64,000 nucleotides of DNA from an uncultured delta proteobacterium (GTDB taxonomy: Bacteria > Desulfobacterota > Binatia > Binatales > Binataceae), in NCBI GenBank assembly GCA_963724765.1, contig CAVRVY010000004.1, positions 128,001 through 192,000 of the forward strand, read 5' to 3'. Position 1 is the stretch's first letter. Each line of letters opens with the position of its first letter. Of this stretch, positions 10,156 through 57,831 are shown one piece after another. A model generated the notes under the pieces. That model did no database searches, was not told the origin of the DNA, and was given only the letters and a program-made list of their open reading frames with translations. Both the position numbers and the translations under genes were made by a program.

Positions 10156-10989
10156 TCATCGGCAGTTGCGGGCGGCGCGGTAGCCGGCCTGCTCGGCAGC
10201 TTGTGCGCTTGAAAACTCGACGCGATTGGCAGTCGAAACCTTGTCGTAGAAGGGACACCCAGGCCATTCGTAGATCCGGCTGCGTCGATTGCCAATGATT
10301 GGTCCGTTTGGCGCGGGCGGCGGTGTAGCGCTATCCAGCACCGAAGAATTTTGCGCGTCCCCTGCGCTGGCACTGGCGCGAAGCGGCCGTGACTCGATCG
10401 CGCGGCTTCTCCAATGTTGCACGTATTGAGCGGCCAGTGCGGAATCGCGAATCACCAGCAGGTTCTCGACGTTCCTGTGCTCGGCGGAATACGTGTAGTT
10501 GAAACTGCCGGTGACGACGACTTCGCCGTCGATAATCATAACCTTGTCGTGCATCAGGCCGGGCGGCCTGTCGACCAGCACGGGAATTCCGGCGGCGCCA
10601 AGATGCTCGACGGCGAACGCGTCGTCGTGGTTGCGGCGGTCGGTGAGCTGCCGGTAGTCAACGATGGCGCGAACGTCCACGCCCCGCTGGTGAGCATCAA
10701 TCAGAGCCGTCACCAGTGGGCCGGGCGTAATCTCATAAGCCTGGATCAGGATCGATTTGCGCGCCGCCCTTACCGCGTCCTCGATAGCTCTGACCGGGTC
10801 GCATCCACCGGGCAGCGGCGGCGAGAAGCAGACCTCGATTTGCGCCGCTAACGCTCCAGGTGCCGGCGCGGCAGCCGCAAATACGAATGCAACGGCGAAC
10901 GCCGCGAGCGCCAGCCGTCTCTGCCGGATTGGCGCGATCAATCTGTGCCGGTGCGCTGCGACATCCCGAGCGCGCCCGCGCACCGTCAT
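10156..10989 (-). CDS. Secreted phospholipase D-family (Nuc-like) nuclease with C-terminal Ada-metal-binding-like domain
   Basis: Single HKD motif HDKVMIIDG...TGSFN; C-terminal IIGNRRSRIY..PGC...FSSAQAAEQAGYRAARNC. Confidence 0.8.
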   Translation of the reverse strand: MTVRGRARDVAAHRHRLIAPIRQRRLALAAFAVAFVFAAAAPAPGALAAQIEVCFSPPLPGGCDPVRAIEDAVRAARKSILIQAYEITPGPLVTALIDAHQRGVDVRAIVDYRQLTDRRNHDDAFAVEHLGAAGIPVLVDRPPGLMHDKVMIIDGEVVVTGSFNYTYSAEHRNVENLLVIRDSALAAQYVQHWRSRAIESRPLRASASAGDAQNSSVLDSATPPPAPNGPIIGNRRSRIYEWPGCPFYDKVSTANRVEFSSAQAAEQAGYRAARNCR

Positions 10990-26497: not shown

Positions 26498-27202
26498 GTG
26501 CCAGTGTCGGATGAAGCCATTGACCGGGTGGGAGCGATGCTCGAGCAGTTGGGCGCGCGTTTCGAGCTGGTGCTTGAGGCCGTCTCCGGATTCGGCGGAC
26601 GGCTGGACGCGCTGCGCGAGGAAATCTTCGGACAGTTCACCGAGGTGGGACGGCAAATCCGTTTCCTCTCGGAACAGATTGCCGAGAACCGCGACGCTAT
26701 TGCGGGCGTGCGCTCCGACCTCGGCGCTGAAATTGTGCGTCTGGGCGAAACCCTGGGCGCCACCCGGGTCGATTTTCGTGAACAGTTGAGCGCGCTCAGG
26801 CTCGCGCTGCAAAACGAGATGGGCGTACGCGCAGCGCAGGCGCGTGACCAGCTCTCCGAGGAAGTCTCGCGCCGCGCGGAGGCGGTTCGCGTGCAGCTCG
26901 GCCAGGAAATCGACGTGTTGCGTGAGAGCCTGCGCTCCGACGGCTCGCGCCGCGTCCCCGCGGCGACGCGCGAGAGCGTCGATCGCGCAATCGGCGACGC
27001 TACTGCTCAGCTCAAAGCCGACGTCGTCAGCGCCGCCGAGTCGGTCACCAAGAAGCTGTCGGCCGAACTCAAGCAGACCAACAAAGCAGTGGCCGATCTG
27101 GCGCGCAAGTTCGAGCGCTTCGACGACCGTATCACGATCCAAAGCCGCGACCAGGAGCAGCGCGTGCGCAAGCTCGAACGCGGCGGGCGCAAGGCCGGCT
27201 AG
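26498..27202 (+). CDS. Coiled-coil/amphipathic-helix hypothetical protein
   Basis: Heptad-like helical repeats, co-oriented with lepB. Confidence 0.65.
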   Translation: MPVSDEAIDRVGAMLEQLGARFELVLEAVSGFGGRLDALREEIFGQFTEVGRQIRFLSEQIAENRDAIAGVRSDLGAEIVRLGETLGATRVDFREQLSALRLALQNEMGVRAAQARDQLSEEVSRRAEAVRVQLGQEIDVLRESLRSDGSRRVPAATRESVDRAIGDATAQLKADVVSAAESVTKKLSAELKQTNKAVADLARKFERFDDRITIQSRDQEQRVRKLERGGRKAG

Positions 27203-27387
27203 ATTCCGGCTGCAGGGGTCGTTCACGCCTGGATGCGCCCCGGCGCTCGCGGCTGCTCGCGACGTTTATCAACAGGCGCCAGGTTATCCACAGATTGGCC
27301 GTCGTAGCCAAATCCGTCTGCGCGACGGTGCATCGTTTGCCAGCGTCAGCTTGACCGGCCCCTTGTCGCCGGTAGAAAATAACTCAG

Positions 27388-27418
27388 CCTTTAACCCGCC
27401 ACAGAGAGGGCGGAAAGG
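27388..27418 (+). promoter_or_regulatory. PyrR-binding RNA stem-loop (pyr attenuator)
   Basis: CCTTTAA-CCCGCC-ACAGAGA-GGGCGG-AAAGG matches the PyrR site layout (CUUUAA, CAGAGAGG loop, AAAGG), upstream of pyrR. Confidence 0.8.
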
Positions 27419-27446
27419 GTAAGACGATGAAAATGTATATGTCAGG

Positions 27447-27478
27447 ACCCGGCTGCGCCCGCAGGCGGGTATTTTTTT
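27447..27478 (+). terminator. Attenuator terminator of the pyr leader
   Basis: ACCCGGCTGCG-CC-CGCAGGCGGGT followed by ATTTTTTT. Confidence 0.75.
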
Positions 27479-27551
27479 GCGCCGCCGCACCACGCGCGGT
27501 CTCAGCTACAGCAGAAAGCATCGCCGCAAGCGGACCCGGAAGCGGAGACTG

Positions 27552-28121
27552 ATGAGCGCGCAGGCCAACCTCAAACCGGCGCAAGCGCTCGACGCCTCGG
27601 CGATTGCGCGCTCAGTCAAACGGATCGCGCACGAGATTGTCGAGCGCAATAATGGCGCCGGCAATATCGTCCTGATCGGCATCGTACGCCGCGGGGCTCG
27701 CCTCGCCGAACGGCTGGCCGAAGCGATGGCCGAAGGCGGCAAACGCGCGGTGCCGGTCGGCACGCTCGACATTTCCTCATACCGCGACGACGGGCGCGGC
27801 GCGCCGGGCGACCCGCGGCTGCTCGGTCGCGACATCCCGTTCGCGCTCGATCGCATTCGCGTGGTGCTGGTCGACGACGTGCTTTATACCGGACGCACCG
27901 TGCGCGCGGCGCTCGACGCGCTGGCCGACCTTGGCCATCCGGAATCGATTCAGCTCGCCGTGCTGGTGGATCGCGGCGAGCGCGAACTGCCGATCCGCGC
28001 CGACTACGTCGGCCGCAATATCGAGGCGCCGCGCGACCAGCGGGTGTACGTGCGCCTGGCCGAAGTCGACGGCGTCGACGAGGTCGTAATCGGCGGCGCC
28101 AAAAAGGGCACGGCGGCCTGA
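27552..28121 (+). CDS. pyrR: Bifunctional pyr attenuator / uracil PRTase
   Basis: RIAHEIVERN, LDISSYRDD, LVDDVLYTGRTVRAALD, DRGERELPIRADYVG. Confidence 0.93.
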   Translation: MSAQANLKPAQALDASAIARSVKRIAHEIVERNNGAGNIVLIGIVRRGARLAERLAEAMAEGGKRAVPVGTLDISSYRDDGRGAPGDPRLLGRDIPFALDRIRVVLVDDVLYTGRTVRAALDALADLGHPESIQLAVLVDRGERELPIRADYVGRNIEAPRDQRVYVRLAEVDGVDEVVIGGAKKGTAA

Positions 28122-28126
28122 GCGCG

Positions 28127-30097
28127 ATGGCACGGCTGGGAAAAAACGACATCGTCTCGATCGAAGACCTGACGACGGTTGATATCGAGCGGATTTTCGA
28201 GCTCGCGGACTCGTTTGTCACGGGCCTCGAACGCGGCGAGACGCTCGAGCGCGCCCACGGCCTCATCATGGCGACGCTTTTCTACGAGCCGTCCACCCGC
28301 ACCCGGCTGAGCTTCGAGTCCGCGATGCATCGCCTCGGCGGCGCAGTCATCAGCTCGCCCGACATGCACGCCTCCTCGGCCGCCAAGGGCGAGACCCTGG
28401 CCGACACGGTGCGCGTGGTGGGCGCCTATGCCGACGTTATCGTGGTGCGGCATCCGCGCGACGGCGCGGCGCGGGTCGCCGCCGAGTACGCGCCATGTCC
28501 GGTGATCAACGCGGGCGACGGCAGCCGCGAGCATCCGACCCAGACGCTTTGCGACCTCTACATCCTGCGCCGCAAGAAAGGGCATCTGCGCGGTTTGACG
28601 GTCGCAATCTGCGGTGATTTAAAATTCGGCCGTACCGTCCATTCGCTGATTTACGCGCTCGCCCGCTTCGGCGCCAATATCGTGGCCGTGCCGTACAACG
28701 GGATGAACGTGCCGGACTATGTGCTGGAACGAGTCGCCGCCGAGAGCAAGTACGGGCTTTCGACGGTCACGATGGAAGAGTTGCGCTCGCTGGCTGGCGG
28801 AATCGACGCGCTTTACCTGACGCCTAACGCGCCACATCAGATGGCGCTGTTCACCTCCGATATGCCGTTGGCTGGCGCTTTGCCGGCGGCGGTAGCGCCC
28901 GTCGCACTCGACGCATTCTACCTGACGCGTCTGCAGCGCGAGCGGATGGACGACAAGGAAGGCGACGGCGGCAAATACGGACATTTCGACGCGCGCGCGC
29001 TCAAGACCAGCCGCACTCATGAGGCGGTCGTGATGCATCCACTGCCGCGCACCGACGAACTGGCCTACGAACTCGATAGCGACCCGCGCGCGGTGTACTT
29101 CGAGCAGGCCGCCGCCGGCGTGCCGGTGCGAATGGCGCTCATCGCGTGGCTGCTCGAGCAGAACGGAACCGAGCGCGTACGTCCGGCCGCGATGGTGCCC
29201 GCGATTCGTTTCAAGGCGCATCCGGCCCCGCGCTGTCCCAACCCGGGATGTATCAGCCGCCACGAAGGAGCTTACCTGGCGCCGCGCTTTCGGCTGGGCC
29301 GCTCGACCGACTCCACGACGCTGCCGCTGGTATGCGAGTTCTGCGAGCGCGAACTCAAAATTGAATTCGTCGGTCACGCGCGCACGCGGCGCTACTACCG
29401 TTTCGACCGCAACCTCTACGGCTATGTGCGTAGCTGGATCGAGGAAGGCTCGCTTGCGGTGTTCGAGAGCGTCAAGCAGGCCGAGGAGAGCGGCTACGAG
29501 CCCTATCGGCGCGGCCCGCAGCGCGAAATCATGAACGCCGACGAAGTCGCGGCGGCTTGCCGCGCGCTGGCCACGCAGATGGCCGCCGACTTGCCCGACC
29601 TCGCCTCCGTCACGATCGTCGGCGTGGTCAGTCACGGTGCGATGCTCGCGATGCGCCTGCGCGATTTGATCGAAGCCAAGACTCATGTGCGTCCGCCATG
29701 CGCGGCGCTCGACGTGTTCGGTGGCGAGGCGGCATTCCATCCACTCGACGGCGGCGGCGGACCTCTCGAAGTTCAAATTGAAGTCAAAGACCGCACGATC
29801 GTCCTGGTCGACGACGTAATTAACAGCGGATGGACCGTGCAGCGCGCGATGACGGCGCTGTGGCAGCGCGGCCGTCCGGCCGCGGTCAAACTCGCGGTGC
29901 TGATCGACCGCGGCCATCGCGCCGTTCCGATCCGGCCCAACTACGTCGGCAAGAATATCCCGACCGCCCGGGCCGAGCGGGTCCAGGTCCGCTTGGCAGC
30001 GCCTGAGGGCGCCGCGCCGGGCCGCGCCAAAGCGCAGGATCGCGTCGTCATCTACTCGATGGTCGACTCGCTCAAGGAAGGAGAAAACGCCGGATGA
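28127..30097 (+). CDS. pyrB: Aspartate carbamoyltransferase fused to a PyrI-like Zn domain, an Ada-like small domain and a PyrR-like PRTase domain
   Basis: FYEPSTRTRLSFE, HPTQ, GDLKFGRTVHSL, YLTRLQRER, MHPLPR; then CPNPGCIS...CEFCE; then LVDDVINSGWT...DRGHRAVPIRPNYVGKN. Confidence 0.9.
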   Translation: MARLGKNDIVSIEDLTTVDIERIFELADSFVTGLERGETLERAHGLIMATLFYEPSTRTRLSFESAMHRLGGAVISSPDMHASSAAKGETLADTVRVVGAYADVIVVRHPRDGAARVAAEYAPCPVINAGDGSREHPTQTLCDLYILRRKKGHLRGLTVAICGDLKFGRTVHSLIYALARFGANIVAVPYNGMNVPDYVLERVAAESKYGLSTVTMEELRSLAGGIDALYLTPNAPHQMALFTSDMPLAGALPAAVAPVALDAFYLTRLQRERMDDKEGDGGKYGHFDARALKTSRTHEAVVMHPLPRTDELAYELDSDPRAVYFEQAAAGVPVRMALIAWLLEQNGTERVRPAAMVPAIRFKAHPAPRCPNPGCISRHEGAYLAPRFRLGRSTDSTTLPLVCEFCERELKIEFVGHARTRRYYRFDRNLYGYVRSWIEEGSLAVFESVKQAEESGYEPYRRGPQREIMNADEVAAACRALATQMAADLPDLASVTIVGVVSHGAMLAMRLRDLIEAKTHVRPPCAALDVFGGEAAFHPLDGGGGPLEVQIEVKDRTIVLVDDVINSGWTVQRAMTALWQRGRPAAVKLAVLIDRGHRAVPIRPNYVGKNIPTARAERVQVRLAAPEGAAPGRAKAQDRVVIYSMVDSLKEGENAG

Positions 30098-31461
30098 GCC
30101 GAATCCTCCTGCGCGGTGGCCGGCTTATCGATCCGGCGCGCGAAATCGACGAGATCTGCGACCTGCTCGTCGCCGAGGGCAAAGTCGAGACGATTGCGCC
30201 GCCGGGCCGGCTCGGCAGCTCCGAGGGCGCGACGATTATCGACGCGACCGGATGCTGGGTCGTGCCCGGGCTCGTCGATCCCCACGTGCATCTGCGCGAC
30301 CCCGGCTTTCCCGAGAAGGAGACGATCGCGACCGGGCTGCGCGCGGCGGCGGCCGGCGGCTTTACCGCGGTGGCCGCGATGGCGAACACTTCGCCGGTCA
30401 ACGACACTCCCGAGGTGACGCGCTACATGCTCGAACATGCCGCGGCCGTTCATGCGGCGCGGCTGGTCCCGGTCTCGGCGGTGACGCGGGGGCTGGGCGG
30501 GCGGGAGACGGTCGACTTTGCGGCGATGGTGGCGGCCGGCGCGCAGCTTTTTTCCGACGACGGAATTCCGATCGACGACCAGGCGGTGCTGGCCAGTGCG
30601 ATGGAGCAAATCGCGCGGTTGGGCTTCGCGATTTCCTTGCACGAGGAAGACCGCGCGCTCACCGCCAACGGCGCGGTCAACGCGGGCGAGGTCTCCAAGC
30701 ATCTAGGCGTGGCGGGCGTGCCGGCGGCCGCCGAAACCGAGCGCATCCGGCGCGACCTGGCGCTGGCGATCGGCGCCGGTGCGCCAGTCCATATCGCGCA
30801 CGTCTCGACCGCGCTCTCGCTCGATCTGATCCGCGCGGCGCGCAAGCGCGGCGCCCAGCTCACCTGCGAGGCCACGCCGCATCACTTCGCGCTCGACGAT
30901 CGCGCGGTGCTCCGATGGGGCCCGAGTGCCAAGATGGCGCCGCCGCTGCGCTCGGCCCACGATGTCGACGCGGTGGTAGCAGCGATCGCCGACAGCACGA
31001 TAGATATGATTGCGACAGATCATGCGCCGCACGATCCGCACTCCAAGCGGATGGAACGGCTGGCCGGGCTTTTCAGCTCCGGAAGCGACTGCGGGCGGCT
31101 CGCCGAGGGCGAAGTCGAGGCGCTGACGCAGGCCGCCAACGGCGTGGTGGGACTCGAAACCGCGCTGGGCCTCGTGCTCGAACTGGTCCATCGCGCAGTG
31201 ATCGGTCCGGCGCGGATGGTCGAGATGATGTCGCTGAAGAGCACGCAGCTACTGAGAATCGACGGCGGTACGTTGGAGGAGGGAGCGCGCGCGGATATAA
31301 CGCTTATCGATCCGAATATGGAATGGACAGTGGATCCGGCGAAATTCATTTCAAAAAGCCGTAACAGCCCGTTTGCCGGGCGGCGGTTGAAGGGCAGGGC
31401 AATATTGACGATCGTCGCGGGCGATGTCGTGTACGACGGCAGAACAGGGACGCAGGTGTGA
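30094..31461 (+). CDS. pyrC: Dihydroorotase (type I)
   Basis: [38 protein letters not shown]. Confidence 0.93.
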
Positions 31462-32660
31462 GCGCACAGCGCGAAGCGATACTGGCGCTAGCCGACGGCC
31501 GCATCTTTCGCGGCCGCGCCTTTGGCGCGATCGGCGAAATCGTGGGCGAAGTCGTATTCAACACCGCGATGACCGGTTACCAGGAAGTGCTCACCGATCC
31601 GTCGTACAAGGGACAGATCGTCTGCATGACCTGCCCGGAGATCGGCAACGTCGGAATCAATGCCGACGATGCTGAGTCGGCGGGCCTTCACGTCGAGGGC
31701 TTCGTGGTCAAGGACTATCGTCCGCGGCCGTCGAACTGGCGCTCCGAGATGGCGCTCGGCGAATACCTCGAGCGCGCTGGAGTGCCTGGAATCGAAGGAA
31801 TCGACACGCGTGCGCTGGTACGCCACATCCGCAACCACGGCGCGCAGGAGGCGGTGATTTCCAGCGTCACGCTCGACCCCGACGCGCTGGTCGCGCGCGC
31901 CAAGGCCTCGCCGGGGCTGGTCGGCCGCGATCTGGTCAAGGAGGTCACCTGCACCGAGCCATACGACTGGGATCTCGGGGATTGGGAACTCGGGACAGGC
32001 TATCGGCAGACGTCGCAAGAGGAATTGCGCGACGCGCCGCTGATTGTCGCGCTCGACTATGGAATCAAGCGCAACATCCTACATCGTCTGGTCGCCAGCG
32101 GCTTTCGCGTGCGAGTGATGCCGGCTGCGGCGACCGCCGCGGAGATCCTCGCACCCAATCCCGACGGCGTCTTTCTTTCTAACGGTCCTGCCGATCCGGC
32201 TGCGCTGCCCTACGCGAGCGAAGCGGTGCGCGGCGTGCTCGGGCGCAAGCCGATTTTCGGAATCTGTCTCGGCCATCAGATTCTCGGCCTCGCGCTCGGC
32301 GGGCGAACTTACAAACTCGGCTTCGGCCATCACGGCGCGAACCATCCGGTGATGGACCTGCGTACGCGGAAGGTCGAGATTACTTCGCAGAACCACGGCT
32401 TCGCAGTGGACGCCGACTCGCTCGCGGGACGCGCGGAGCTATCGCATCTCAACCTCAACGACAAAACGGTCGAGGGCCTCTGCGGCGTCGGCGTGCCGTT
32501 CTTCTCGGTGCAGTACCATCCCGAGGCCTCGCCCGGACCGCATGACGCGGGCTACCTGTTCGCGCGTTTTCGCCGCCTGGTCGAGGAATTTCCACGATCG
32601 GGCGCGAACGCGCTCGACCGTATCGCCGCCGAAGAGCGCGGCGCCGGCCTGGACGTTTAA
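31458..32660 (+). CDS. carA: Carbamoyl-phosphate synthase small subunit
   Basis: [34 protein letters not shown]. Confidence 0.97.
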
Positions 32661-35930
<3,270 letters not shown>

Positions 35931-38589: not shown

Positions 38590-39894
38590 CTATGAGCGGG
38601 GCGGAGCGGGCGCCGCGGGCATGGATGCGGCGGCGCCGATCACGCTCGCACGCCACACCGCCGGCGCGAGTTCGGCCGATTGCATCGCGCCCGGGCCGAT
38701 GATCGCGAGCACCGCCGCGCCGCGGCGCTCAACATGATGCGCCGCCGGCGCGGTTCGGTCGAGGATCCCCTCGTAGGCCTGGGTGAAGGCCGCGGCGCTC
38801 GTATAGTCGCTCAACACCACGATCCAAATGATAGTGGTCGCGCCGCCGTTTTGCAGCACGGTCATCCGATCTCCGCGCCACGCGCGCGCCAGCGCAGCCC
38901 CTGCCTGATCGCCCGGACTGCGCGTAAGAATGACGCGCAGGAGCAACTCGCCGTAGGTGTCTTCCGCGACCTCGCGCCATCCCATGAGCGCCCGCGTCCA
39001 TCCGCCGACGGTTATCGCCAGCGGCGAGGAATGGCTGAAGTAGAGCGCTGGCTCGAGGATCTCCCGCGTCGAGAGCGGCGGGTTGCGATAGAGCGCATTC
39101 ACCGCCTTCCAGCCGCCGCGCAGGTAGGCCTCGCCGACGAAGCGGGTCCCGTCGGTGTACTGGAAGATGAGCGAATCGCGCAGCGCTGCCGGCGTGCCAG
39201 GCGATTGGACGTCGAACAGCGTGGGCATTTTCTCGAGATGGGTCAGCAGCGTGTGAATAGTGTCGGCGTCGATGAGCCCGGTGGTATAGCCGTAGCCAAC
39301 AAGCGTCGCGTCGCCCTCGGCCACCGATTTCAGCGCGAGCCGGCGATCGTCATTGTCGGTGATTCGATCGAGCGCGGCATGGACGCCGAAATACTGGTCC
39401 TGCAGCGCGTGGGTCAACTCGTGCGCGACCAGCATCTCGCGCGTCGAATCCTTGTGGGTGAAAAAACCCTTGATTTCCGACCACAGGCTGGGCTGGGATT
39501 TGCCCTTGACCAGGATCATTTCCCGATCCTGGGGATCGTAAAAGCCCACCACCTGTCTGCTCAGCACGCGCATCGTCTGCGCCTTGAGGTCAGTTCCCTG
39601 ATCATAAAGTCCCGTAAGCTCGCCAACTATGGCGGCGCGCTGGAGCTCAGCCTCGTCGTGATGGCGCTCCACTTCGCGTTCCAGCACGAGATTGGCCTGG
39701 CCCTGGTCCATCAGCAGCAGCGGCACGTCGGTTTGGAAGTTGAGCTGGCGCAATTCCTGTACGTCGGAATAAATCTGCTCGGCCCGTCGAAGGTTGACCT
39801 GGCCACCGCTCACCACCGCCCAGGCGCATCCGGAGAACCCGAGCAGAACCAGCGCGGCGCTTCGATAAAGCCGCGATGGATGCCGCGAACGCAT
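38590..39894 (-). CDS. Exported zincin-like protein (HExxH), paralog 1
   Basis: AHELTHALQDQ...EGDAT; signal/lipoprotein-like N-terminus. Confidence 0.7.
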   Translation of the reverse strand: MRSRHPSRLYRSAALVLLGFSGCAWAVVSGGQVNLRRAEQIYSDVQELRQLNFQTDVPLLLMDQGQANLVLEREVERHHDEAELQRAAIVGELTGLYDQGTDLKAQTMRVLSRQVVGFYDPQDREMILVKGKSQPSLWSEIKGFFTHKDSTREMLVAHELTHALQDQYFGVHAALDRITDNDDRRLALKSVAEGDATLVGYGYTTGLIDADTIHTLLTHLEKMPTLFDVQSPGTPAALRDSLIFQYTDGTRFVGEAYLRGGWKAVNALYRNPPLSTREILEPALYFSHSSPLAITVGGWTRALMGWREVAEDTYGELLLRVILTRSPGDQAGAALARAWRGDRMTVLQNGGATTIIWIVVLSDYTSAAAFTQAYEGILDRTAPAAHHVERRGAAVLAIIGPGAMQSAELAPAVWRASVIGAAASMPAAPAPPRS

Positions 39895-39895
39895 C

Positions 39896-41299
39896 TCAGC
39901 GCGCGGCGGCGAGCCGGCGAAGCGGCGCGGAGGGGGCGAGCGGCGCGCCGGCATGAAGCGACGGACCGCCCGGCGTGATCGCTGGTGGCGGAGCCGTGAT
40001 CGTGCTCGCCTTCCACACCGCCGGCCCAAGCCGGTCGAAATGCGCGGCCGCCTCGCCGACCGCCAGGAGCACCGCGTCGCCCTTGACTTCGACGCGATGC
40101 GTCGCCGGATGACCGTGCATGTGATCGAGCACCTTACGATAAACAGCCGCGAAGCGAGAGGCCGCATCGGCGTCGCGAAACGCCAGCATCCAAATGACGC
40201 TCACCGACTCGCCCTTGCGCAGCATCACGATCCGGTCGCCCGCCCATTTGGCGGCGAGCGCCAGGTCCGGCGACGCCGCGCCGCGCGTGTTTTCCAGGAT
40301 GATGCGCAGGCCAAGCTCGCCCAGCGTGTCTTCGTCGGATTTATGCCAGCCGCTGATCCGCGACTGGTAACCCGCAACGGTGACCGTATCGGGAAGGGTG
40401 GGGTGGTCGAAGTAGAGCGACGGATCGATGATCTGCTGGGTGGACTGCGGGGGATCGCCGTAGAGCTTGTCGACCGCCTTCCAGCCTCCGCGCTGGTAGG
40501 CCTCGGCGACGAACTTGACGCCGTCGGTGTACTGAAAAATCAGCGGCTCGGCTACGCCTCGCGGCACGCCGGCGGCTGCGCCAGTGAAGGTTTGCGAAAA
40601 GCTCTGCAGATTGCCGATCAGCGTAGAAAGGATGACCGAGTCCATGCGGCCCAGCATGCAGGCGTAACCCGCGATGGTCGCGTCGCCCTCGGCTACCGAG
40701 TGCAGCGCGAGCGCGCGGTCGCCGTTGCTCTTGAGCGCTTCATCTTTCGCGCCGAAGTCGAAGTTCTGATCCTGCAGTGCGTGGGTGAACTCGTGAGCCA
40801 GGATCATGTCCTCCAGTTTGGTCTGGAGTTCGGGTGGCTGGCCGGGAAACTCGCGCTCCAGCGCGCCGCTCACGATCACCATGGTCTTTTTCTTGAAGTC
40901 GTAAAACGCGATCACCTGGCTTTCGAGCAGGTTCATGTTGGCGGCCTTGAGATTGACCGCCGGCGGATACAGTCCAATCAGCGCGCCGGCGCGACCGTCG
41001 GTGTCGATCGCCTCGGGCGTGTATTCGCTTTCCAGTTCCGTCTCCAGCAACTTGCCCGCCTCCTCGGTGCTGCGGACTTCGACCGGAACCTTGTGCTTGA
41101 GCTTGAGCAGGCGCACTTCCTGGATGGTCTGCTCGACCGCGGCCGCCTGCTGTTCGTTGACCTTGCCGTTTTCCGCCTGCGCCTGTACGCATCGCGCGCT
41201 GGACACCGCCAAAAGAATCGCGGCGATTATCGAAAACAACAGCGGATGGCGCGGGGAGAACAACAGACGGTGCGGGAAGGGGCGGATGAGGTATTTCAT
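39896..41299 (-). CDS. Exported zincin-like protein (HExxH), paralog 2
   Basis: AHEFTHALQDQ...EGDAT; LIFQYTDG shared with paralog 1. Confidence 0.72.
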   Translation of the reverse strand: MKYLIRPFPHRLLFSPRHPLLFSIIAAILLAVSSARCVQAQAENGKVNEQQAAAVEQTIQEVRLLKLKHKVPVEVRSTEEAGKLLETELESEYTPEAIDTDGRAGALIGLYPPAVNLKAANMNLLESQVIAFYDFKKKTMVIVSGALEREFPGQPPELQTKLEDMILAHEFTHALQDQNFDFGAKDEALKSNGDRALALHSVAEGDATIAGYACMLGRMDSVILSTLIGNLQSFSQTFTGAAAGVPRGVAEPLIFQYTDGVKFVAEAYQRGGWKAVDKLYGDPPQSTQQIIDPSLYFDHPTLPDTVTVAGYQSRISGWHKSDEDTLGELGLRIILENTRGAASPDLALAAKWAGDRIVMLRKGESVSVIWMLAFRDADAASRFAAVYRKVLDHMHGHPATHRVEVKGDAVLLAVGEAAAHFDRLGPAVWKASTITAPPPAITPGGPSLHAGAPLAPSAPLRRLAAAR

Positions 41300-49447: not shown

Positions 49448-49762
49448 ATGCCCAAGAGTCATGCACGGTATGCGCTGGAATACCGGCGCCGAATGGTGGA
49501 GCTGGCGCGGGCAGGGCGTAGTCCCGACGATCTCGCGAAGGAGTTCGAGCCGACCGCCCAGTCGATTCGCAACTGGGTGGCGCAGGCGGAGCGCGATGCG
49601 GGCCGTCGTCTTGATGGGCTGACCAGCGACGAGCGGCAGGAGCTTACCCGGCTGCGGCGTGAGAACCGGGTGCTGCGCGAAGAGCGCGAGATACTATCAA
49701 AAGCCGCGGCCTGGTTCGCGACGGAGACCGGTTCGGTGCCGTCACGGCGTTCGAATTCGTGA
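49448..49762 (+). CDS. IS3 transposase OrfA (HTH + leucine zipper)
   Basis: RYALEYRRRMVEL...IRNWV...ELTRLRRENRVLREEREILSKAAAWF. Confidence 0.9.
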   Translation: MPKSHARYALEYRRRMVELARAGRSPDDLAKEFEPTAQSIRNWVAQAERDAGRRLDGLTSDERQELTRLRRENRVLREEREILSKAAAWFATETGSVPSRRSNS

Positions 49763-50643
49763 GCGCGAATCAGGCCATGTACCAGATTGCGACGATGTGC
49801 CGGGTGCTGGAGGTCTCCACCAGCGGATACTACGCGTGGTGCCAACGCTCGCCGTCCGCGCGCGCCCAGGCGGACGCGGAACTCACTTCACGGATGAACG
49901 CGATTCATGAGAGATCGTACGGGACCTACGGCGCACCGCGCATTCACGCCGAACTTGAGGCTGAAGGCATTCAAGTGGGGCGCAAGCGGGTGGCGCGGCT
50001 AATGCGCGCGGCAGGCTTGGCCGGCGTGAGCCGGCGCAAGTGGATAACCACCACGATGCGTGACCGCAATGCGCGTCCGGCGCCGGACCTGGTCGAGCGC
50101 AACTTCATGGCGCCAGGACCGAATCGGTTGTGGGTGGCTGACATCACCTATATCCCGACCTGGGCTGGTTTCCTGTATCTCGCGGTAGTGTTGGACGCCT
50201 TCAGCCGCCGGATCGTGGGCTGGGCGATGGCGACTCATCTGCGCACCGAGCTGGTGCTCGAAGCACTGAACATGGCGCTGGCGCAGCGGCGGCCCGCCGG
50301 GGTGATCCATCATTCCGACCAAGGCACACAGTACACGTCGATCGCCTTCGGGATACGTTGCCGGGAGGCCGGCGCGCGACCCTCGATGGGCTCGGTCGGT
50401 GATTGCTTCGACAATGCCATGTGCGAGAGCTTTTTCGCTACGCTCGAATGCGAGCTGCTCGACCGCCGCCGTTTCCACACCCAAGCCGAGGCGCGCATGG
50501 CGGTCTTCGAGTTCATCGAGGGCTGGTACAATCCCCATCGCCGCCACTCCGCCCTCGACTATCTGTCGCCAATCAACTACGAAAGGAGCCACGACCCAGA
50601 GGAGTCAACCGCAAGCCCTCCGCCGTCCACTGAACCGGGGTAA
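49759..50643 (+). CDS. IS3 transposase OrfB (DDE integrase)
   Basis: WVADITY, HHSDQGTQY, DNAMCESFF, YNPHRRHSAL. Confidence 0.93.
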   Translation: MSANQAMYQIATMCRVLEVSTSGYYAWCQRSPSARAQADAELTSRMNAIHERSYGTYGAPRIHAELEAEGIQVGRKRVARLMRAAGLAGVSRRKWITTTMRDRNARPAPDLVERNFMAPGPNRLWVADITYIPTWAGFLYLAVVLDAFSRRIVGWAMATHLRTELVLEALNMALAQRRPAGVIHHSDQGTQYTSIAFGIRCREAGARPSMGSVGDCFDNAMCESFFATLECELLDRRRFHTQAEARMAVFEFIEGWYNPHRRHSALDYLSPINYERSHDPEESTASPPPSTEPG

Positions 50644-50764
50644 CTCCAGAGATCGACATTGATGTGACGGTCCAGAGCGATGCGCTCGATGATTTTTAAG
50701 CCTTTCTGAGACTCGTTGGCGCCTGTTGAGTCGCGCTTTAGTATGCTGCGCGGATGTTCGCGCC

Positions 50765-51217
50765 CTACTCCAATAAGTCCACCATTGAAGACCCTAATTG
50801 TTGGTGGATCTGCTCCCAACGTGCCGTCGCCGCAAGGAGTTTGTCGTGGGCCTTGTCGCGCTCTTTCTCAAGGTCTGTGATTTGCGTTTTCAATTCCCGC
50901 ACCGCGCTCTCGACTGATTGAACATTTTGGACGGCCGTATGGCGCGCTTGTGCTAGGCGCGCCAGTTCTGGCTCAAGTGAGGGTCTCACATTTGAAGTAG
51001 CAGTGTCACGATATTCTCGAAACTTCTGATAATTCAGTTCTGCTTTTTCTCGCAATTCGTTGACATATGGCAACGTGCCTTTCGTATTGTTCGCCTTTGT
51101 TCTTATGAGCATGAGCTGGTCGTCATATTTTTGGACGCGCTCGCTCGCTTGGATACGTTTGGCATTTTCCACTTCCAGAGCATGTTGAAGATTTTCTCTA
51201 ATGCCCACCTCGTTCAC
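50765..51217 (-). CDS. Coiled-coil cargo protein
   Basis: 150-aa helical ORF whose GTG start overlaps the TGA of the upstream small ORF. Confidence 0.6.
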   Translation of the reverse strand: MNEVGIRENLQHALEVENAKRIQASERVQKYDDQLMLIRTKANNTKGTLPYVNELREKAELNYQKFREYRDTATSNVRPSLEPELARLAQARHTAVQNVQSVESAVRELKTQITDLEKERDKAHDKLLAATARWEQIHQQLGSSMVDLLE

Positions 51218-51381
51218 CTCTGCCCGATCCTTGTCTTTGGATCTGAATGAATTGCTTTTCCTAACAACTTGTCAAACTTTCCTAAGTCAATATGGCGGAT
51301 CTGCTCCCGCAGCTTGTCATCCTCTGCGCGCTGCTTTTCGCTGATCGGCTTGTGCTTTTGCCTACGCTTTTTTGTGGCCAC
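51214..51381 (-). CDS. Small basic protein (55 aa) downstream of IS1595-a transposase
   Basis: Hand-translated MATKKRRQKHKPISEKQRAEDDKLREQIRHIDLGKFDKLLGKAIHSDPKTRIGQR; homologous to 56699-56854. Confidence 0.7.
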   Translation of the reverse strand: MATKKRRQKHKPISEKQRAEDDKLREQIRHIDLGKFDKLLGKAIHSDPKTRIGQR

Positions 51382-51431
51382 GCTTGTACTTTAGCGCGGC
51401 CACGGAGCCTAGGCCATATGGTGCTTGCAAA

Positions 51432-52364
51432 CTATCCACTGCACGTTTCGACCATCGCAGCAAAGGCGTCTGCGCTGTGGCGATTGTTGTGGCGAAAGCT
51501 GAACTCATTTAGATACAGCGGCAGATAATCCTTGCTCACGTGGTGATAGGTGCCCACCACGCCACGCTTGAGCAATGCCCAGAACGATTCGATATTGTTT
51601 GTGTGAACCTCGCCGCGCACATATTCGCCGCGACCGTGATTCACAGCCTGATGCGGGATGCTTCTGTTCAGATAGCGATAGGCTTGATTTTCATCGGTCG
51701 CAACCAGTGAAACCTTGTCGCTCACAGTGCGATTAACGAAACCAGTCAGAGTTTGGGCGCCCATATCGCCAATGACCTTGGCGACGATGTTGCCCTTGCG
51801 CTCGATAGCGCCAATCACGCCGACTTTGCCGTAGCCGATGGCTTCGCCTAGAGGCTGTCGGCCTTTGGCCTTGCGTACCTGGGCGCTTTTCTTGCCGTAG
51901 TGGCGATTCCGATCCTTTCCACCGATGTAAGTTTCATCGACTTCGACTTGGCCAGTCAGCGAAAACGCATCGCCTTTCATCGCAGCACGCCAGCGATGGC
52001 AGATATACCAAGCTGTGCGCCAGTCTGTACCTGAATCCTCGCCAAACATAACGCGCCGAACCTGAAGCGAGCTAATGCCTTTCTTCGCGGTCAGCATCAT
52101 GTAGCCAATGCGAAACCAGATAACCAGTGAGACTTTGGTGTCTTGAAAAATCGTGGCTGTGGTGACGCTAAAGCGATAGCCCGCGCGCTTGCCGCAATCG
52201 GCGTTGCAGCAAGTCCAGCTAAAGGGTTTCTTTAACTTGTAGATTTTCTCCGCACGATTACAGCGAGGGCAGCGCACGCCGTTCGGCCAGCGCTTGGCGA
52301 CGATGTATTCTTTGCAGGCTTCATCGGTCGGAAACTGTTTCTCGAATAGCGCCAGTGTTTCCAT
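51432..52364 (-). CDS. IS1595-family (ISXO2-like) transposase a
   Basis: Zn ribbon CPRC..C..C, TIFQDTK, EVDETYIGG, ATDE, HTNNIESFW, YLNEFSFRHN. Confidence 0.93.
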   Translation of the reverse strand: METLALFEKQFPTDEACKEYIVAKRWPNGVRCPRCNRAEKIYKLKKPFSWTCCNADCGKRAGYRFSVTTATIFQDTKVSLVIWFRIGYMMLTAKKGISSLQVRRVMFGEDSGTDWRTAWYICHRWRAAMKGDAFSLTGQVEVDETYIGGKDRNRHYGKKSAQVRKAKGRQPLGEAIGYGKVGVIGAIERKGNIVAKVIGDMGAQTLTGFVNRTVSDKVSLVATDENQAYRYLNRSIPHQAVNHGRGEYVRGEVHTNNIESFWALLKRGVVGTYHHVSKDYLPLYLNEFSFRHNNRHSADAFAAMVETCSG

Positions 52365-52371
52365 GCTTCAG

Positions 52372-52400
52372 ATATTAGCGCTCTTTGCGTTGACTGTCAA
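52372..52400 (-). promoter_or_regulatory. sigma70 promoter of transposase a (probably leaderless)
   Basis: TTGACA-17 bp-TAATAT-7 nt-ATG; -35 lies inside the IR. Confidence 0.7.
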
Positions 52401-52420
52401 TACCAACAAAATAGCCACTA

Positions 52421-52448
52421 CGTAGACATAAATACTTGGAGTGCAAGT
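52421..52448 (-). other. dif-like site C
   Basis: Plus strand CGTAGACATAA-ATACTT-GGAGTGCAAGT; GTGCAA shared with site D; abuts the stop codon at 52449. Confidence 0.5.
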
Positions 52449-52955
52449 TCACCCTCTCAGGTCCGGAGTCGGCCTCGAAGCGGAAACCAGCAGGGAGATA
52501 AAGGCGATTACAGTTACACCAAGGATCCAAAGGGTCGCCAGCATGAATATGACCGCTTCCTCGCGGATGAGATAACCGGCAGCTGCCGCAAAGCTCGCGG
52601 CAGCGATTCCTAAGCCCATCACACTCGTAGTGGAAGAGCGAAGTATTTCAGTCCGATGTCGGGAGGTTTCGAGCACGAGACGACCGCCGCCGATGAGATG
52701 TATTAGACCAGACACTGCGTTGCAGATCTGCCATGCAATGTGCTCTTCGGATGCCAGATACACCAGCAGAAGCGCAGCGAAAAGGGACAGAAATAGAGCG
52801 CTCAGCGAGGAGTACATGAAATGAAACAGCGCCGAGGTTTGGCCCCTACCTAGACGGTGAGATCGCTCACCAAAAACAAAGACCACGCCGATGAATCCGG
52901 TCAGAGTCGCGGCCACTTGCGCGTAGGCGAGGAGAATAACCGCGTAACTACTCAT
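52449..52955 (-). CDS. Multi-pass membrane hypothetical protein between dif-like sites C and D
   Basis: About 5 hydrophobic segments; AQVAATLTGFIGVVFVF. Confidence 0.7.
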   Translation of the reverse strand: MSSYAVILLAYAQVAATLTGFIGVVFVFGERSHRLGRGQTSALFHFMYSSLSALFLSLFAALLLVYLASEEHIAWQICNAVSGLIHLIGGGRLVLETSRHRTEILRSSTTSVMGLGIAAASFAAAAGYLIREEAVIFMLATLWILGVTVIAFISLLVSASRPTPDLRG

Positions 52956-53000
52956 GTTGGGGTGCTAGGCTCTCTCGAAATCACGATAATTTTCGAGTCT

Positions 53001-53058
53001 GGTGAACATAATATTTCTCGTGCAACTGCAAAGAAGCGGTCGCAAGATTATGTCAACT
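53001..53058. other. Paired inverted dif-like sites D/D'
   Basis: GGTGAACATAA-TATTTC-TCGTGCAACTG-CA-AAGAAGCGGTC-GCAAGA-TTATGTCAACT; same 58-bp layout as B/B'. Confidence 0.7.
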
Positions 53059-53084
53059 TGAATCAAGTGGCGATTATCCGGCGC

Positions 53085-53113
53085 TTGACACCGACCCAAT
53101 AAAGCGCTATTCT
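53085..53113 (+). promoter_or_regulatory. sigma70 promoter of transposase b (probably leaderless)
   Basis: TTGACA-17 bp-TATTCT-7 nt-ATG. Confidence 0.7.
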
Positions 53114-53120
53114 TTTCATC

Positions 53121-54101
53121 ATGAATACGAAGAGAAAGCCCGTTGTTCGGCAGATGCAATTGCGCGAGCTTCTGGCCCGTTTCTCGACTGAGGATGCTTG
53201 CAAAGAACACCTTGACCGAAGGCGCTGGCCGGATGGTGTGGTCAAGTGCCCGCGTTGCGGCGGCAAAGCATACCGGCTCAAGGCGCGCCCCTTCCACTAC
53301 CTGTGCAAGAGCGGCAAGCAATCGACCGATAAAGAGACCGGCGATGTCGTTACCTGCCACAAACAAAACGGCTATCGCTTCTCCGTCATCACGCGAACTG
53401 TGTTCGAGAATACGAACTACCCTCTTCGAGAATGGTTCCGGGTAATCTTCTTCATGCTGCACTCGAAGAAAGGAATGTCTGCCCATCAGATACACCGCAT
53501 GATCGGAACCGGCTCGTATGAAACCGCTTGGTATATGTGCATACGAATTCGCGCCGCAATGCGCGGCGATATGCTTTCGCTGAGCGGCATTGTAGAAGCG
53601 GACGAGACTTACATCGGCGGGAAGGATCGCAATCGACACTGGAACAAAAAGAGCCGTCAGCAACGTGAATTGGCTGGGCCACAACCGCTTGGCGAGGCCG
53701 TTGGATACGGGAAAAGCGGAGTCATCGGCGCAATCGCTCGCAAGGGTAACGTCGTCTGCCGCGTGATCGGCGATCAGGATGCTCGCACGCTTGCGGGTTT
53801 CGTTCGCAACGTCGTTGACGACAAGGTAACCCTCGTCGCGACGGACGAGAACCAAGCCTACAATTATTTGGACCGCGACATTCGCCATGAGGCGGTCAAG
53901 CACAGCGCTGGCGAATACGTGCGCGGCGAGGTCCATACGAACAACATCGAGAGTTTCTGGAGCCTTCTGAAGCGTGGCGTTGTGGGCACCTATCACAACG
54001 TGAGCAAGAAATATCTGCCGCTGTATCTGAATGAATTTTCCTTCCGATTCAACAATCGCGAGAACCCTGATATCTTCGACGCCATCCTTCGAGGATGCTG
54101 A
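53121..54101 (+). CDS. IS1595-family transposase b
   Basis: CPRC, EADETYIGG, ATDE, HTNNIESFW, YLNEFSFRFN. Confidence 0.93.
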   Translation: MNTKRKPVVRQMQLRELLARFSTEDACKEHLDRRRWPDGVVKCPRCGGKAYRLKARPFHYLCKSGKQSTDKETGDVVTCHKQNGYRFSVITRTVFENTNYPLREWFRVIFFMLHSKKGMSAHQIHRMIGTGSYETAWYMCIRIRAAMRGDMLSLSGIVEADETYIGGKDRNRHWNKKSRQQRELAGPQPLGEAVGYGKSGVIGAIARKGNVVCRVIGDQDARTLAGFVRNVVDDKVTLVATDENQAYNYLDRDIRHEAVKHSAGEYVRGEVHTNNIESFWSLLKRGVVGTYHNVSKKYLPLYLNEFSFRFNNRENPDIFDAILRGC

Positions 54102-54177
54102 GTTCGCCACGCTGGCGGCGCCCTCAGCAACCGTCAAAGCCAGCGCAATTGCGGTTACCGTTTGCTGCGAGGGTGGG

Positions 54178-54453
54178 ATGGCACGGAAGAAAGCAAAACG
54201 ATCGGTTGGATCAGCTCGCGTTCCAATTTCCGATGAAAAATTGATCGCGCGCCTCCAAGAGAAAGCGCCGGAGCTATTGACTGCCAAGGTTTCGGAAGCG
54301 GCCTTTGATTCGGTCATAGACAATCTGCTTGCGGAATCGCCATCCGATGATCGTCCGCATTTCTATTGCCGCAAATGCGGGGAATATCACCTGAAAAGTC
54401 ATTTGCACTATCAACCTAGCGCCACTACGAAAACCACCCCAAAACAAGCTTGA
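54178..54453 (+). CDS. Small basic protein (91 aa) downstream of transposase b, with C-terminal CxxC..H..H
   Basis: MARKKAKRS...SDEKLIARL...FDSVIDNLL...YCRKCGEYHLKSH. Confidence 0.6.
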   Translation: MARKKAKRSVGSARVPISDEKLIARLQEKAPELLTAKVSEAAFDSVIDNLLAESPSDDRPHFYCRKCGEYHLKSHLHYQPSATTKTTPKQA

Positions 54454-55075
54454 GCGATCAAGAGAAGAAAGATTCCCCCGAACCCGCAGAGCGCGGAACG
54501 AAGGGGAGTCACCTGACGGGGCACTTCGAACTCGATCTCCCAAATCCCAACGAGGATACAACCGCAGGCGAAAGAATCAGAAATCCTTCAAGCGCCGCCT
54601 TTTTAACGACCTGCGAAACCCGCGCTTTTATATCGAAGGATTCGCTCTCATCGTTGTTGCCATCTATACCGGCTTCGCTGGATATCAATCGTGTCAGTTG
54701 GAACGCTCTACCATTGCGACCAAAGAAAGCGCTGATGCTGCGGTTGCGGCGACGCGTGCCTTGATCTTTCTCGAAGAGAAACCATTTTTCGGCAGTTATG
54801 GACCTGTATGCACTATGGGCTTGCAAAATGTCGGCAAGATTCCCGCTACTCAGATAATCGAAACGCACGAATTCAAGATCACCGCCAACGATAATGCCGT
54901 TCCGAGTTTTTCCCGATGTCCTGAAGGGAAGAAACTCCGCTTCCCGTATATCAGGCCTGATCATCCGAGAATCTTCGCAATCGCTCCACCGGTCGGAGCT
55001 TCCCAGACTCCGCCCACAGTCTGGATTCACGGCTGTATTCGCTATCGCGACTTCTTGAGCGCGCGTCTAGTTTAG
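54450..55075 (+). pseudogene. Membrane-anchored cargo protein, apparently frameshifted near 54600
   Basis: Overlapping ORFs 54450-54764 and 54698-55075; a TM-like IVAIYTGFAGYQ segment lies in the second frame after a T-run. Confidence 0.45.
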
Positions 55076-55240
55076 ACCCACGATCTGGTCGGTGTCGAGT
55101 ATCGGATAATCGCCCCTCAAGTGGGGACTAGGTGAATGTTGACACCCACTGAAAGTTGGCATAAAAAGAGTCGAGGACGGCTATGCAGGGAGGTTCTGCG
55201 GGCGGGGTTCCCGCCCGGTTACAAGGGCCGCGAGTGGTTT

Positions 55241-55979
55241 ATGATTCTCCACGCTTACTTTGACGAACACGGGCACGATGGATCGTCCGTATACGCCATC
55301 GCTGGTTACGTCGGGACCGATGAGCAATGGAGCACGTTCACTGAAAAGTGGAGCTCTACCCTAGAGCGTCATTATGCATTCGGCCCGTTCCACATGGTCG
55401 AGTTCGAGGCTTCAGACATAGACAAAAAGAGCCAGTTCCACGGCTGGAGCAAGGATCAAAAGGACGCGCTGGCGAAAGAGCTTTTTCCGCTCATCCCTGA
55501 CAGCGGTGTGCGCGGATTAGGCCAAGCGATACTGATGGACGCCTTTAATGGCCTTTCGGAGAATGCACAGCAACGGTTACGCGATCCTTATTGGGGTCTG
55601 CTTCCACAACTGTATCGAACGACTACTGAAGGACATTCCAGAGGACGACAAGGTTGATTTGGTTTTTGATCGCAAAGACAAATACACTGGCGAAGCGCTG
55701 GATCGCTATAGATTTCTCAAGGATGACTGGCTGCCGCCTGCACAGGCGAAAAAGCTAGTGGGTTGTGCATTCAGAGACGACGATATCATTATTCCGCTAC
55801 AAGCAGCGGACGTTCTCGTTTATGAAACCGGCAAATTATTTGAGAACGCCTTTCGTAGGCCAGATTTATCGGAGAGAAAGTCACTGCAAGTTCTCCGTGC
55901 GCGACAAAACGTACAAATCGGAGTCTGGGACAGGGATAATCTTGCCGCAGAGTTTAAAAAATACAACTCCCTACTCTAG
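55241..55979 (+). pseudogene. DUF3800-like protein, frameshift near 55595
   Basis: AYFDEHG...IAGYVG...FHMVE in one frame; LVFDR...PLQAADVLVYE in the next. Confidence 0.65.
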
Positions 55980-56179
55980 CCACTGCTGGTAAGACACGCC
56001 CAAAAAATAGCGGCGACCACCGCGACGGCGCCTAAAACCAGCGGAATCGCACAGCCGATAAGGCCGAGCGCATCGCCCACTCCCATCGGGCCGGGATGGC
56101 TTTGGCCGCAATGTGGGCAGACCTTCGCTTTCTCTGAAACAGGCGCGTGGCAGGTTTTGCAGTTGACCAGAGCGGCCAC
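55976..56179 (-). CDS. Zinc-ribbon protein with C-terminal TM helix
   Basis: CKTC...SEKAKVCPHCG, hydrophobic tail. Confidence 0.65.
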   Translation of the reverse strand: MAALVNCKTCHAPVSEKAKVCPHCGQSHPGPMGVGDALGLIGCAIPLVLGAVAVVAAIFWACLTSSG

Positions 56180-56185
56180 GAACGT

Positions 56186-56692: not shown

Positions 56693-56698
56693 GTCTTT

Positions 56699-56854: not shown

Positions 56855-56886
56855 GCTGAAAGCATAGCGCTTTCAAATCGCGCCGG

Positions 56887-57825: not shown

Positions 57826-57831
57826 GCTCAA

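Follow-up and report, generated by a model that had tools for sequence, protein, structure and literature searches.

What becomes of the control of aspartate carbamoyltransferase (ATCase), a textbook allosteric enzyme at the start of pyrimidine synthesis, when its catalytic chain is joined in one polypeptide to pieces of two different regulators? This question is raised by a 64,000-nucleotide stretch of DNA (hereafter the window; positions 128,001 to 192,000 of contig CAVRVY010000004.1) from an uncultured delta proteobacterium of the Binataceae, which belong to the Binatia, a group of uncultured soil bacteria. A gene at 28127-30097 on the forward strand of the window appeared to encode a PyrB catalytic chain, the zinc domain of PyrI, a small Ada-like domain and a domain resembling the attenuator protein PyrR, and an earlier note made from the letters alone had proposed that the last domain was co-opted as the allosteric sensor of the enzyme. 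The present analysis indicates a real, lineage-wide variant of a known enzyme, for which sequence comparison and structural models make a swapped sensor plausible.

The open reading frame (ORF) was uninterrupted over 656 amino acids, with zero internal stops. Pfam detected OTCace_N at residues 8-148 (E = 4e-45), OTCace (9e-18) and Pribosyltran at residues 467-609 (1e-13), and the Pfam and NCBIfam matches together gave a layout of ATCase chain (approximately residues 8-345), PyrI zinc domain (369-412) and PyrR-like domain (approximately 465-628). A search with residues 345-656 as the query yielded 562 matches among 7999 scored candidates. All four Pfam domains were listed in 110 of the best 119 matches other than the query, at about 650 amino acids, and the organism-named entries among these 119 were Binataceae or Binatus. 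The surroundings of the catalytic HPTQ motif read EHPTQ[TS]LCDL in 106/106 four-part proteins and in 112/112 relatives lacking the last domain (three-part proteins), and GTDB genomes were scanned for this motif. At least 120 loci were found, 80 of which were read with their flanks; they form a sample rather than a census, in which members without the motif are missed. The whole fusion was present in one ORF in 13 of the 80 loci, all of Binatia type. The claim of a single four-part ORF was thus borne out, and the possibility that an assembly or gene-calling artefact had joined genes that relatives encode separately was rejected as virtually excluded by these 110 matches and 13 loci.

The PyrB part exceeded the cut-offs of both TIGR00670 and PRK00856. 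Its closest solved relatives were PyrB of P. abyssi, M. jannaschii and E. coli (1e-64 to 3e-77), compared with only 5e-35 for B. subtilis PyrB, confirming the archaeal/E. coli type of chain that had been read from the sequence before. The residues S56, T57, R58, T59, K87, R108, H136, Q139, R169, R268, Q270, L306 and P307 were invariant in 129/129 diverse members; we take their E. coli equivalents to be STRT, K84, R105, H134, Q137, R167, R229, Q231 and L267-P268. The model of residues 1-464, with a predicted local distance difference test (pLDDT) of 87.7 and a predicted template modelling score (pTM) of 0.88, matched human CAD ATCase at Z 38.5 (root-mean-square deviation (rmsd) 1.9, 302 aligned residues). 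Judged by residue conservation, the catalytic chain is intact. The fusion gene was also the sole pyrB match within the window and sat in the pyrB slot, with a stand-alone pyrR upstream and pyrC-carA-carB downstream. The four-part protein is, by its residues and its gene context, most likely the working housekeeping ATCase of the Binatia pyr operon.

The zinc domain proposed behind PyrB was equally clear. The PyrI_C model (PF02748) matched residues 369-412 at E = 2.7e-7 and 30.8 bits against a cut-off of 23.4, the family profile matched solved PyrI chains (best 6e-8), and the four cysteines C370, C375, C403 and C406 were invariant in the 129 diverse members. No match to the nucleotide-binding and dimerising (N) domain of PyrI was found by Pfam at E<=1 in the 656-residue protein, and only about 20 poorly conserved residues link PyrB to the zinc domain, in agreement with the earlier reading that the N domain is not evident. 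The tblastn search with E. coli PyrI against the window and the 80 loci gave 20 matches, 18 of which started at residue 90 or later, and the two starting earlier were weak (E 3e-4 and 1e-3). A hidden nucleotide domain was thus not found in the protein by Pfam, nor in the window and the 80 loci by tblastn.

The zinc domain is followed by a small segment that was ordered in the model (pLDDT 93-96 at residues 411-460) and contained, as had been stated, zero Cys (residues 413-462). The structure searches with the models returned ATCase and phosphoribosyltransferase matches, and residues 346-462 lay outside them. The window's own segment matched no Ada model. For the likeness to the tail of the protein at 10156-10989, also claimed before, support came solely by way of relatives. 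A profile built from 12 of the three-part type matched this tail at 89.7% (E 1.8e-6), a mostly four-part profile reached just 12.5%, and a larger profile gave E 5e-9 in a one-sequence comparison. At E<=0.1, Pfam Ada_Zn_binding was matched by 7/12 relatives, all under the cut-off, and NCBIfam 'sunset' by 5/12. Residues 413-460 have, via relatives, a weak profile match to the Ada N-terminal zinc/'sunset' domain and lack the cluster of four zinc-binding Cys of Ada. The protein at 10156-10989 itself, on the reverse strand, is of the phospholipase D family; a hydrophobic stretch lies at its N terminus, and the Ada/'sunset' domain at its C terminus retains two Cys.

The last domain has the fold of PyrR. 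Its model matched M. tuberculosis PyrR (1w30) at Z 24.0 (rmsd 2.0, 163 aligned residues), and purine phosphoribosyltransferases matched at Z 17, well under this value. The domain scored 123.9 bits, below the lowest PyrR cut-off (138). We compiled a motif table of 193 fused domains, many of them close relatives, consisting of 161 Binataceae-type, 18 other and 14 side-branch domains with P0159 excluded, and numbered its positions by B. velezensis PyrR. In PyrR, we take the basic helix (R19, H22, R27) to bind RNA, DRGHR to form the base pocket and the YRDD loop to serve catalysis. G43, D105, D106, G111, T113, H140, R141, P144 and P155 were present in 193/193 fused domains, as were, in window numbering, D562, D563, G568, T570, H597 and R598. 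The earlier note had described the domain as lacking the RIAHEI, YRDD and TGRT motifs. This held for the helix and YRDD, but not for TGRT, as the phosphoribosyl loop reads DDVINSGWT and its D-D, G and T are conserved throughout.

The RNA-binding features, on the other hand, appear lost. R19, H22, E26 and R27 were mostly absent from the fused domains, with the basic positions R19, H22 and R27 replaced mostly by S/A, D/A and D, respectively. The mean net charge of helix 1 was -1.96 in the 161 Binataceae-type fused domains, as opposed to +1.21 for the 14 free PyrR of Binatia and +1.67 for nine outgroups. The domain is thus PyrR-like, yet by these substitutions it fails the RNA-binding features of PyrR. 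The YRDD loop was missing from 179 fused domains, while the 14-member side branch kept F/Y-R-D-D (14/14), a loop seen also in P0159. An active uracil phosphoribosyltransferase, making the protein bifunctional in de novo synthesis and salvage and leaving only RNA binding to the free PyrR, could explain why the pocket motifs stand in the fused copy and a pocket His is lost from the free one, and the side branch would suit it. The flexible Y-R-D-D loop is needed for uracil phosphoribosyltransferase catalysis, and with its loss from the other 179 domains we regard this reading as improbable. The divergent four-part proteins P0147, P0297-P0310 and P0159, in which the RDD loop is kept in the fused domain, possibly represent an early stage or are still catalytic.

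The fused domain showed 71% identity and a ratio of nonsynonymous to synonymous differences (pN/pS) of 0.31 across seven Binataceae-type loci, as uncorrected proportions, compared with 79% and 0.27 for the free PyrR and 29% and 0.90 for the linker over the same loci. The fused PyrR domain is under purifying selection. Residues 361-648 were modelled as a pair with zinc, and this dimer reached a score of 0.51, the highest of three controls reaching 0.00. In calibration, 20/30 solved homodimers and 1/23 solved single chains attained the score mark, counts that are rough here (own alignment and ligand used). The runs agreed in at least 92% of contacts with pLDDT of at least 75, and all confident contacts were in the PyrR domain (560, 569-589 and 599-605). 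The zinc and Ada-like domains made no confident contacts in this model, which is no evidence that they do not touch. A homodimer held together solely by the PyrR domain is supported by the model; since PyrR dimers have already been solved, this pass may reflect likeness to them.

The modelled dimer surface was recoded in the Binataceae fused domains, with R112 replaced by W in 161/161, W at position 122 in 159, and D148 replaced by N or T. In window numbering, W569 was found in 161/161 and W579 in 159/161, both within this surface. These tryptophans, together with contacts wholly inside the PyrR domain, would also be expected if the domain were a structural cross-linker only, dimerising trimers for stability or cooperativity with its pocket motifs kept for folding. 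We consider this rather unlikely, as D562, D563, G568, T570, H597 and R598 are conserved in all 193 domains, yet only W569 of that loop takes part in the confident dimer contacts.

The stand-alone PyrR upstream bears on the question from the other side. Described before as the real PyrR of the pair, it indeed kept the RIAHEI helix and YRDD, but its own DRGHR has lost the His (DRGER). Among 14 stand-alone Binatia-type PyrR, R19, E23, E26 and RDD were kept in 14/14, H140 was lost in 14/14 and P155 was mostly lost. H140 was retained in 11/11 Dehalococcoidia PyrR, which also had P155 in 11/11, and in 8/9 outgroup PyrR. Three stand-alone Binatia-type PyrR carry R instead of T in the phosphoribosyl loop. 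This complementary loss, H140 being kept in the fused domain, and the pyrR gene directly upstream in 12/12 Binatia-type loci with enough flank, with the attenuator kept, could point to a split sensor: fused domain and stand-alone PyrR would form a mixed pair, through which the enzyme would report nucleotide status to the attenuator and so control the operon that encodes it. The free Binatia PyrR, however, was canonical at the dimer surface, with R112, R115, E142 and D148 in 14/14, where the Binataceae fused domains have W, Q/K, A/Q and N/T. Since the surface is recoded in one and canonical in the other, two separate homodimers are favoured over a mixed pair. The suggestion in the earlier note that the domain is a dock for PyrR was weakened by the same comparison, and pyrR beside pyrB is an ordinary gene order. 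The split sensor is thus judged unlikely, a shade more so than the cross-linker.

The attenuator itself was examined in the leader. No Rfam match in the window attained its gathering score. The leader matched RF00515 with 35.1 bits (E 0.0033), whereas 54 are required, a score that 5/12 related loci reached. A leader motif drawn from the window leader was found in 11/13 Binatia-type and 10/12 Dehalococcoidia pyrR leaders, against an average of about 0.1 in shuffles (0.13 for Binatia-type); both Dehalococcoidia misses were contig-end cuts. The motif was absent from L053 (0/1) and from loci without an upstream pyrR (0/55). In the pyrR leaders of L032, L038 and L053, the binding-loop hairpin reads GAGATAG or GCGATAG instead of GAGAGG; the terminator is retained, as is the CCUUUAA stem. 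As the attenuator is still present, we infer that the free PyrR remains an RNA binder.

These results can be brought together by analogy with E. coli ATCase, in which two trimers are held by three regulatory dimers that work by bending or by a change in the separation of the zinc domains (PMC13168310). PyrR itself is described in a review as having a basic concave RNA surface and as binding UMP/UTP (uridine mono- and triphosphate) in antagonism with guanine nucleotides (PMC7430163). The explanation that we favour, and hold to be slightly better than an even bet, gives the role of the PyrI dimer to PyrR-type dimers, which would link two catalytic trimers and act as the nucleotide sensor. Its basis is that the three-fold symmetry of the catalytic core and the two-fold symmetry of the PyrR dimer would rebuild the E. 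coli geometry of two trimers and three PyrI dimers, here as a hexamer of chains with two trimers and three PyrR dimers. By extension from PyrR, the pocket would bind UMP/UTP as inhibitors and guanosine monophosphate (GMP) or 5-phosphoribosyl-1-pyrophosphate (PRPP) as relieving ligands, shifting the dimer, and the shift would be relayed through the Ada-like spacer and the zinc domain to the active sites. The two PyrR copies would then split the work, the fused one controlling the enzyme and the free one RNA attenuation. The proposal of a co-opted allosteric sensor fits the pN/pS of 0.31, the kept pocket motifs, the lost RNA face and the modelled homodimer, and the fused PyrR domain is probably the replacement sensor.

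Several points weigh against this explanation. Allostery and the oligomer of the whole enzyme are deduced from sequence and partial models, and the first full-chain model reached a pTM of only 0.66, so that a fixed contact of the PyrR domain with the remaining chain is not established. As many as 61 of the 80 loci manage without the PyrR domain, so it is not required for catalysis, and three-part proteins keep the zinc and Ada-like domains although they have no known sensor. The replacements of R112 by W and Y109 by N in the Binataceae fused domains could change or close the pocket, and the side branch with the F/Y-R-D-D loop could still be an enzyme.

The catalytic chain holds a further feature, an internal tandem duplication at residues ~207-270 that was overlooked in the earlier note. 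Ahead of the R268/Q270 motif, almost every family member has an insert of about 20-35 residues, a tandem copy of the strand-helix-strand unit; hhalign scored the duplication at 94% (E 1.2e-7, 13 columns), with at most 2.1% for 34 control windows. Residues 225-243 were the top-conserved segment across the seven Binataceae-type loci (91.5% identity, pN/pS 0.08), yet the insert was unplaced in both monomer models, with pLDDT below 50 at 225-251, and a deeper alignment of 129 sequences still left it unplaced. A conserved yet unplaced insert suggests a partner or a strand-register switch. A register switch of the strand might act as an on/off device by displacing R268/Q270.

The end of this segment reads QLSLF in 48/129, QMALF in 24/129 and QLALF in 14/129 members, with QMALF at 238-242 of the window protein. 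It fits the sliding-clamp consensus QL[S/D]LF or QxxLF, as given in PMC12309361, and lies in a low-pLDDT, flexible segment. If the QLSLF/QMALF loop bound the sliding clamp and the Ada-like domain the DNA backbone, the family would be anchored to the replisome or to DNA, which would be compatible with the replacement sensor. Exact QL[SD]LF was seen in 48 of the 129 diverse members and the looser pattern in 100 (Q in 122, L in 114, F in 100), where the loose-pattern background was 0.003 per 450 residues in ORFs including non-coding frames, and the loop was flexible in both models. The motif, however, is the product of a duplication and lines up with a regular ATCase strand. Clamp binding would also leave unexplained why the preceding residues are equally conserved (Y230 in 128, P236 in 124 and H237 in 120 of 129). 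In Dehalococcoidia the sequence is mostly QLAML or QLANI, and the motif, which has a single origin, was noticed only in hindsight. We rate this tether as more improbable still than the salvage enzyme. That at least one coupling is real, either the fused copy lending a nucleotide signal to the pocket-impaired free PyrR, whereby the enzyme controls its own attenuation, or the QLSLF loop and Ada-like domain tethering ATCase to the replication clamp or DNA, is on present indications doubtful, though less so than any single rival named here. With the first coupling in place, one PyrR sensor would be split between the enzyme and the free protein, and the family would form a new regulatory class of ATCase.

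Where did the four-part protein come from? With the zinc and Ada-like region as the query, relatives terminating after the Ada-like domain were obtained. A three-part profile gave 298 matches, the best 120 of which listed no phosphoribosyltransferase domain and were mostly 430-500 residues long. The 80 flanked loci comprised 61 three-part and 13 four-part genes, two ending right after the zinc domain (L021 and L061) and four contig-cut or frameshifted; the long-read loci L044 and L067 are frameshifted inside the gene. The three-part loci were from Planctomycetota (22), Alphaproteobacteria (22), Chloroflexota (12) and others (5). The alphaproteobacterial Ada-like tails were mostly diverged, and 19/22 scored above the best of 387 scored shuffles. 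The three-part ATCases (L001, L007, L013, L048 and 57 other loci, from Planctomycetota, Dehalococcoidia and Alphaproteobacteria) are without a known sensor or dimerising domain. The four-part loci, 13 in number, carry the labels Binatia, Binataceae, Binatus or 'delta proteobacterium'. The one exception is L053, with the label Acidiferrales, and both trees place its genes among the Binataceae.

The PyrR tree placed the fused domains on one side of a branch (support 95/92) along with two long rows, not nested in the free PyrR of Binatia. When three long rows were removed, holding fused and free Binatia PyrR together gave a p value of 0.87 in the approximately unbiased test. A local duplication of the adjacent pyrR, as once assumed, is therefore allowed by the sequences but not shown. 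In the PyrB tree built without the insert, a branch of only 69% support sets the four-part proteins apart; the backbone and root of this tree are open, so that a single origin and a transfer direction are not shown. The simplest and most likely reading of the sequences is that the PyrR domain was added to a three-part ancestor, with the root open, so that an older three-part enzyme would have gained a pyrR copy in the Binatia lineage.

The gene neighbourhood differed among lineages. The pyrR gene was directly upstream also in 9/9 Dehalococcoidia loci with enough flank, compared with 0/20 Planctomycetota and 0/25 Alphaproteobacteria loci. The pyrC gene adjoined the fusion in 7/12 Binatia-type loci with flank and was not adjacent in the other 5/12; in L012 (3320-6414), carA directly follows the fusion with no pyrC between. 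Two annotated alphaproteobacterial loci showed the three-part gene followed by plsY-dprA-topA, with ruvX upstream in one, a place occupied by pyrB-pyrC in Sphingomonas and Ruegeria. In the Xanthobacteraceae/Micropepsaceae-type genomes of L048 (4371-9074) and L045 (5584-11606), the three-part gene precedes plsY-dprA-topA and pyrC is not adjacent. The flanks of 23 alphaproteobacterial loci contained no pyrC (0/23). As the three-part gene stands at the pyrB-pyrC site without pyrC, it appears to have replaced both genes in place.

Table 1. Features of the pyr operon in the window
Feature	Position	Strand	Basis
PyrR-type attenuator (binding loop + terminator)	27384..27479	+	Rfam RF00515 full-length, ahead of operon
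Stand-alone PyrR	27552..28121 (putative start; longest ORF from 27477)	+	PRK05205 209.5 bits, cut-off 138; motif tables
Four-part ATCase gene	28127..30097	+	656 aa, single ORF, Pfam and NCBIfam matches
PyrB catalytic chain, archaeal/E. coli type	28148..29161	+	TIGR00670 292 bits, cut-off 237
Conserved insert, residues 225-243	28799..28855	+	DALYLT duplicated strand, then PxxPH, QMALF/QLSLF motif
PyrI-type zinc domain, C370 C375 C403 C406	29222..29362	+	PF02748
Cys-less Ada/'sunset'-like small domain	29363..29512	+	Profile matches via relatives
PyrR-derived phosphoribosyltransferase-fold domain	29519..30061	+	Fold match to PyrR; pocket motifs present, RNA-binding helix and YRDD loop missing
pyrC, long-type dihydroorotase	30094..31461	+	TIGR00857 359 bits, cut-off 279; metal-ligand motifs present
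carA + carB, operon remainder	31458..35930	+	TIGR01368 for carA; carB read from translation

Pfam CPSase models matched carB of a Binatia relative. PyrC has an apparent insertion of about 20 residues after DHAPH, and the family models match it in two stretches. Upstream of the operon, a helical coiled-coil ORF of no clear family (26498-27202) is conserved in five Binataceae-type loci. Elsewhere in the window, mobile genes cluster at 49759-57831, where an integrase-core transposase shares 8 kb with three transposases of the IS1595 family, and two adjacent similar-looking ORFs of 470-525 residues at 38590-41299 on the reverse strand have HELTH/HEFTH metalloprotease-like motifs and no Pfam match at 1e-5.

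Three forms of prokaryotic ATCase are distinguished in a review (PMC4581275): with dihydroorotase, with PyrI either free or fused, and as a bare trimer. By sequence, the four-part family fits none of them. It shares with E. coli PyrB + PyrI (PMC13168310) the type of catalytic chain, the four-Cys zinc domain and the proposed layout of two trimers and three dimers, but is a single chain that lacks the PyrI nucleotide domain, carries Ada-like and PyrR-like domains after the zinc domain and has the duplicated insert before R268. It resembles the fused PyrB-PyrI of Thermotoga (PRK13376; PMC4581275) in joining catalytic and regulatory parts in one polypeptide, but only the zinc half of PyrI is present. 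Membership of the Thermotoga type was rejected, as PRK13376 gave 71.9 bits against a cut-off of 800, over residues 50-204 only. The enzyme is probably closest in working to the E. coli/Thermotoga type, yet is set apart from both by the missing nucleotide domain and this score. With the ATCase-dihydroorotase dodecamers of Aquifex and Pseudomonas, it shares the pyrR-pyrB-pyrC-carAB context usual for them and, as a proposed likeness, trimers cross-linked by a dimeric partner, but its catalytic chain is of a different class, and its alphaproteobacterial three-part relatives lie between ruvX and plsY. The last domain has in common with Bacillus and Mycobacterium PyrR the fold, the phosphoribosyl loop, DRGHR, PIRxxYVGK and the modelled dimer, and differs in being fused to an enzyme, in its acidic RNA-binding helix, in the loss of the YRDD loop in most members and in its sub-threshold score. 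The titles and openings of abstracts that were searched, with older subscription literature outside reach, contained no description of a PyrB + zinc + Ada-like + PyrR architecture.

If the proposed replacement is true, the zinc relay of ATCase was kept while its sensor gave way to an unrelated fold borrowed from the gene regulator of the same operon, and the two jobs of one protein were cleanly divided between paralogs. The two-, three- and four-part enzymes would then form a natural series for testing how allostery is rewired. A clamp or DNA tether, if true, would link pyrimidine supply to the replication fork.

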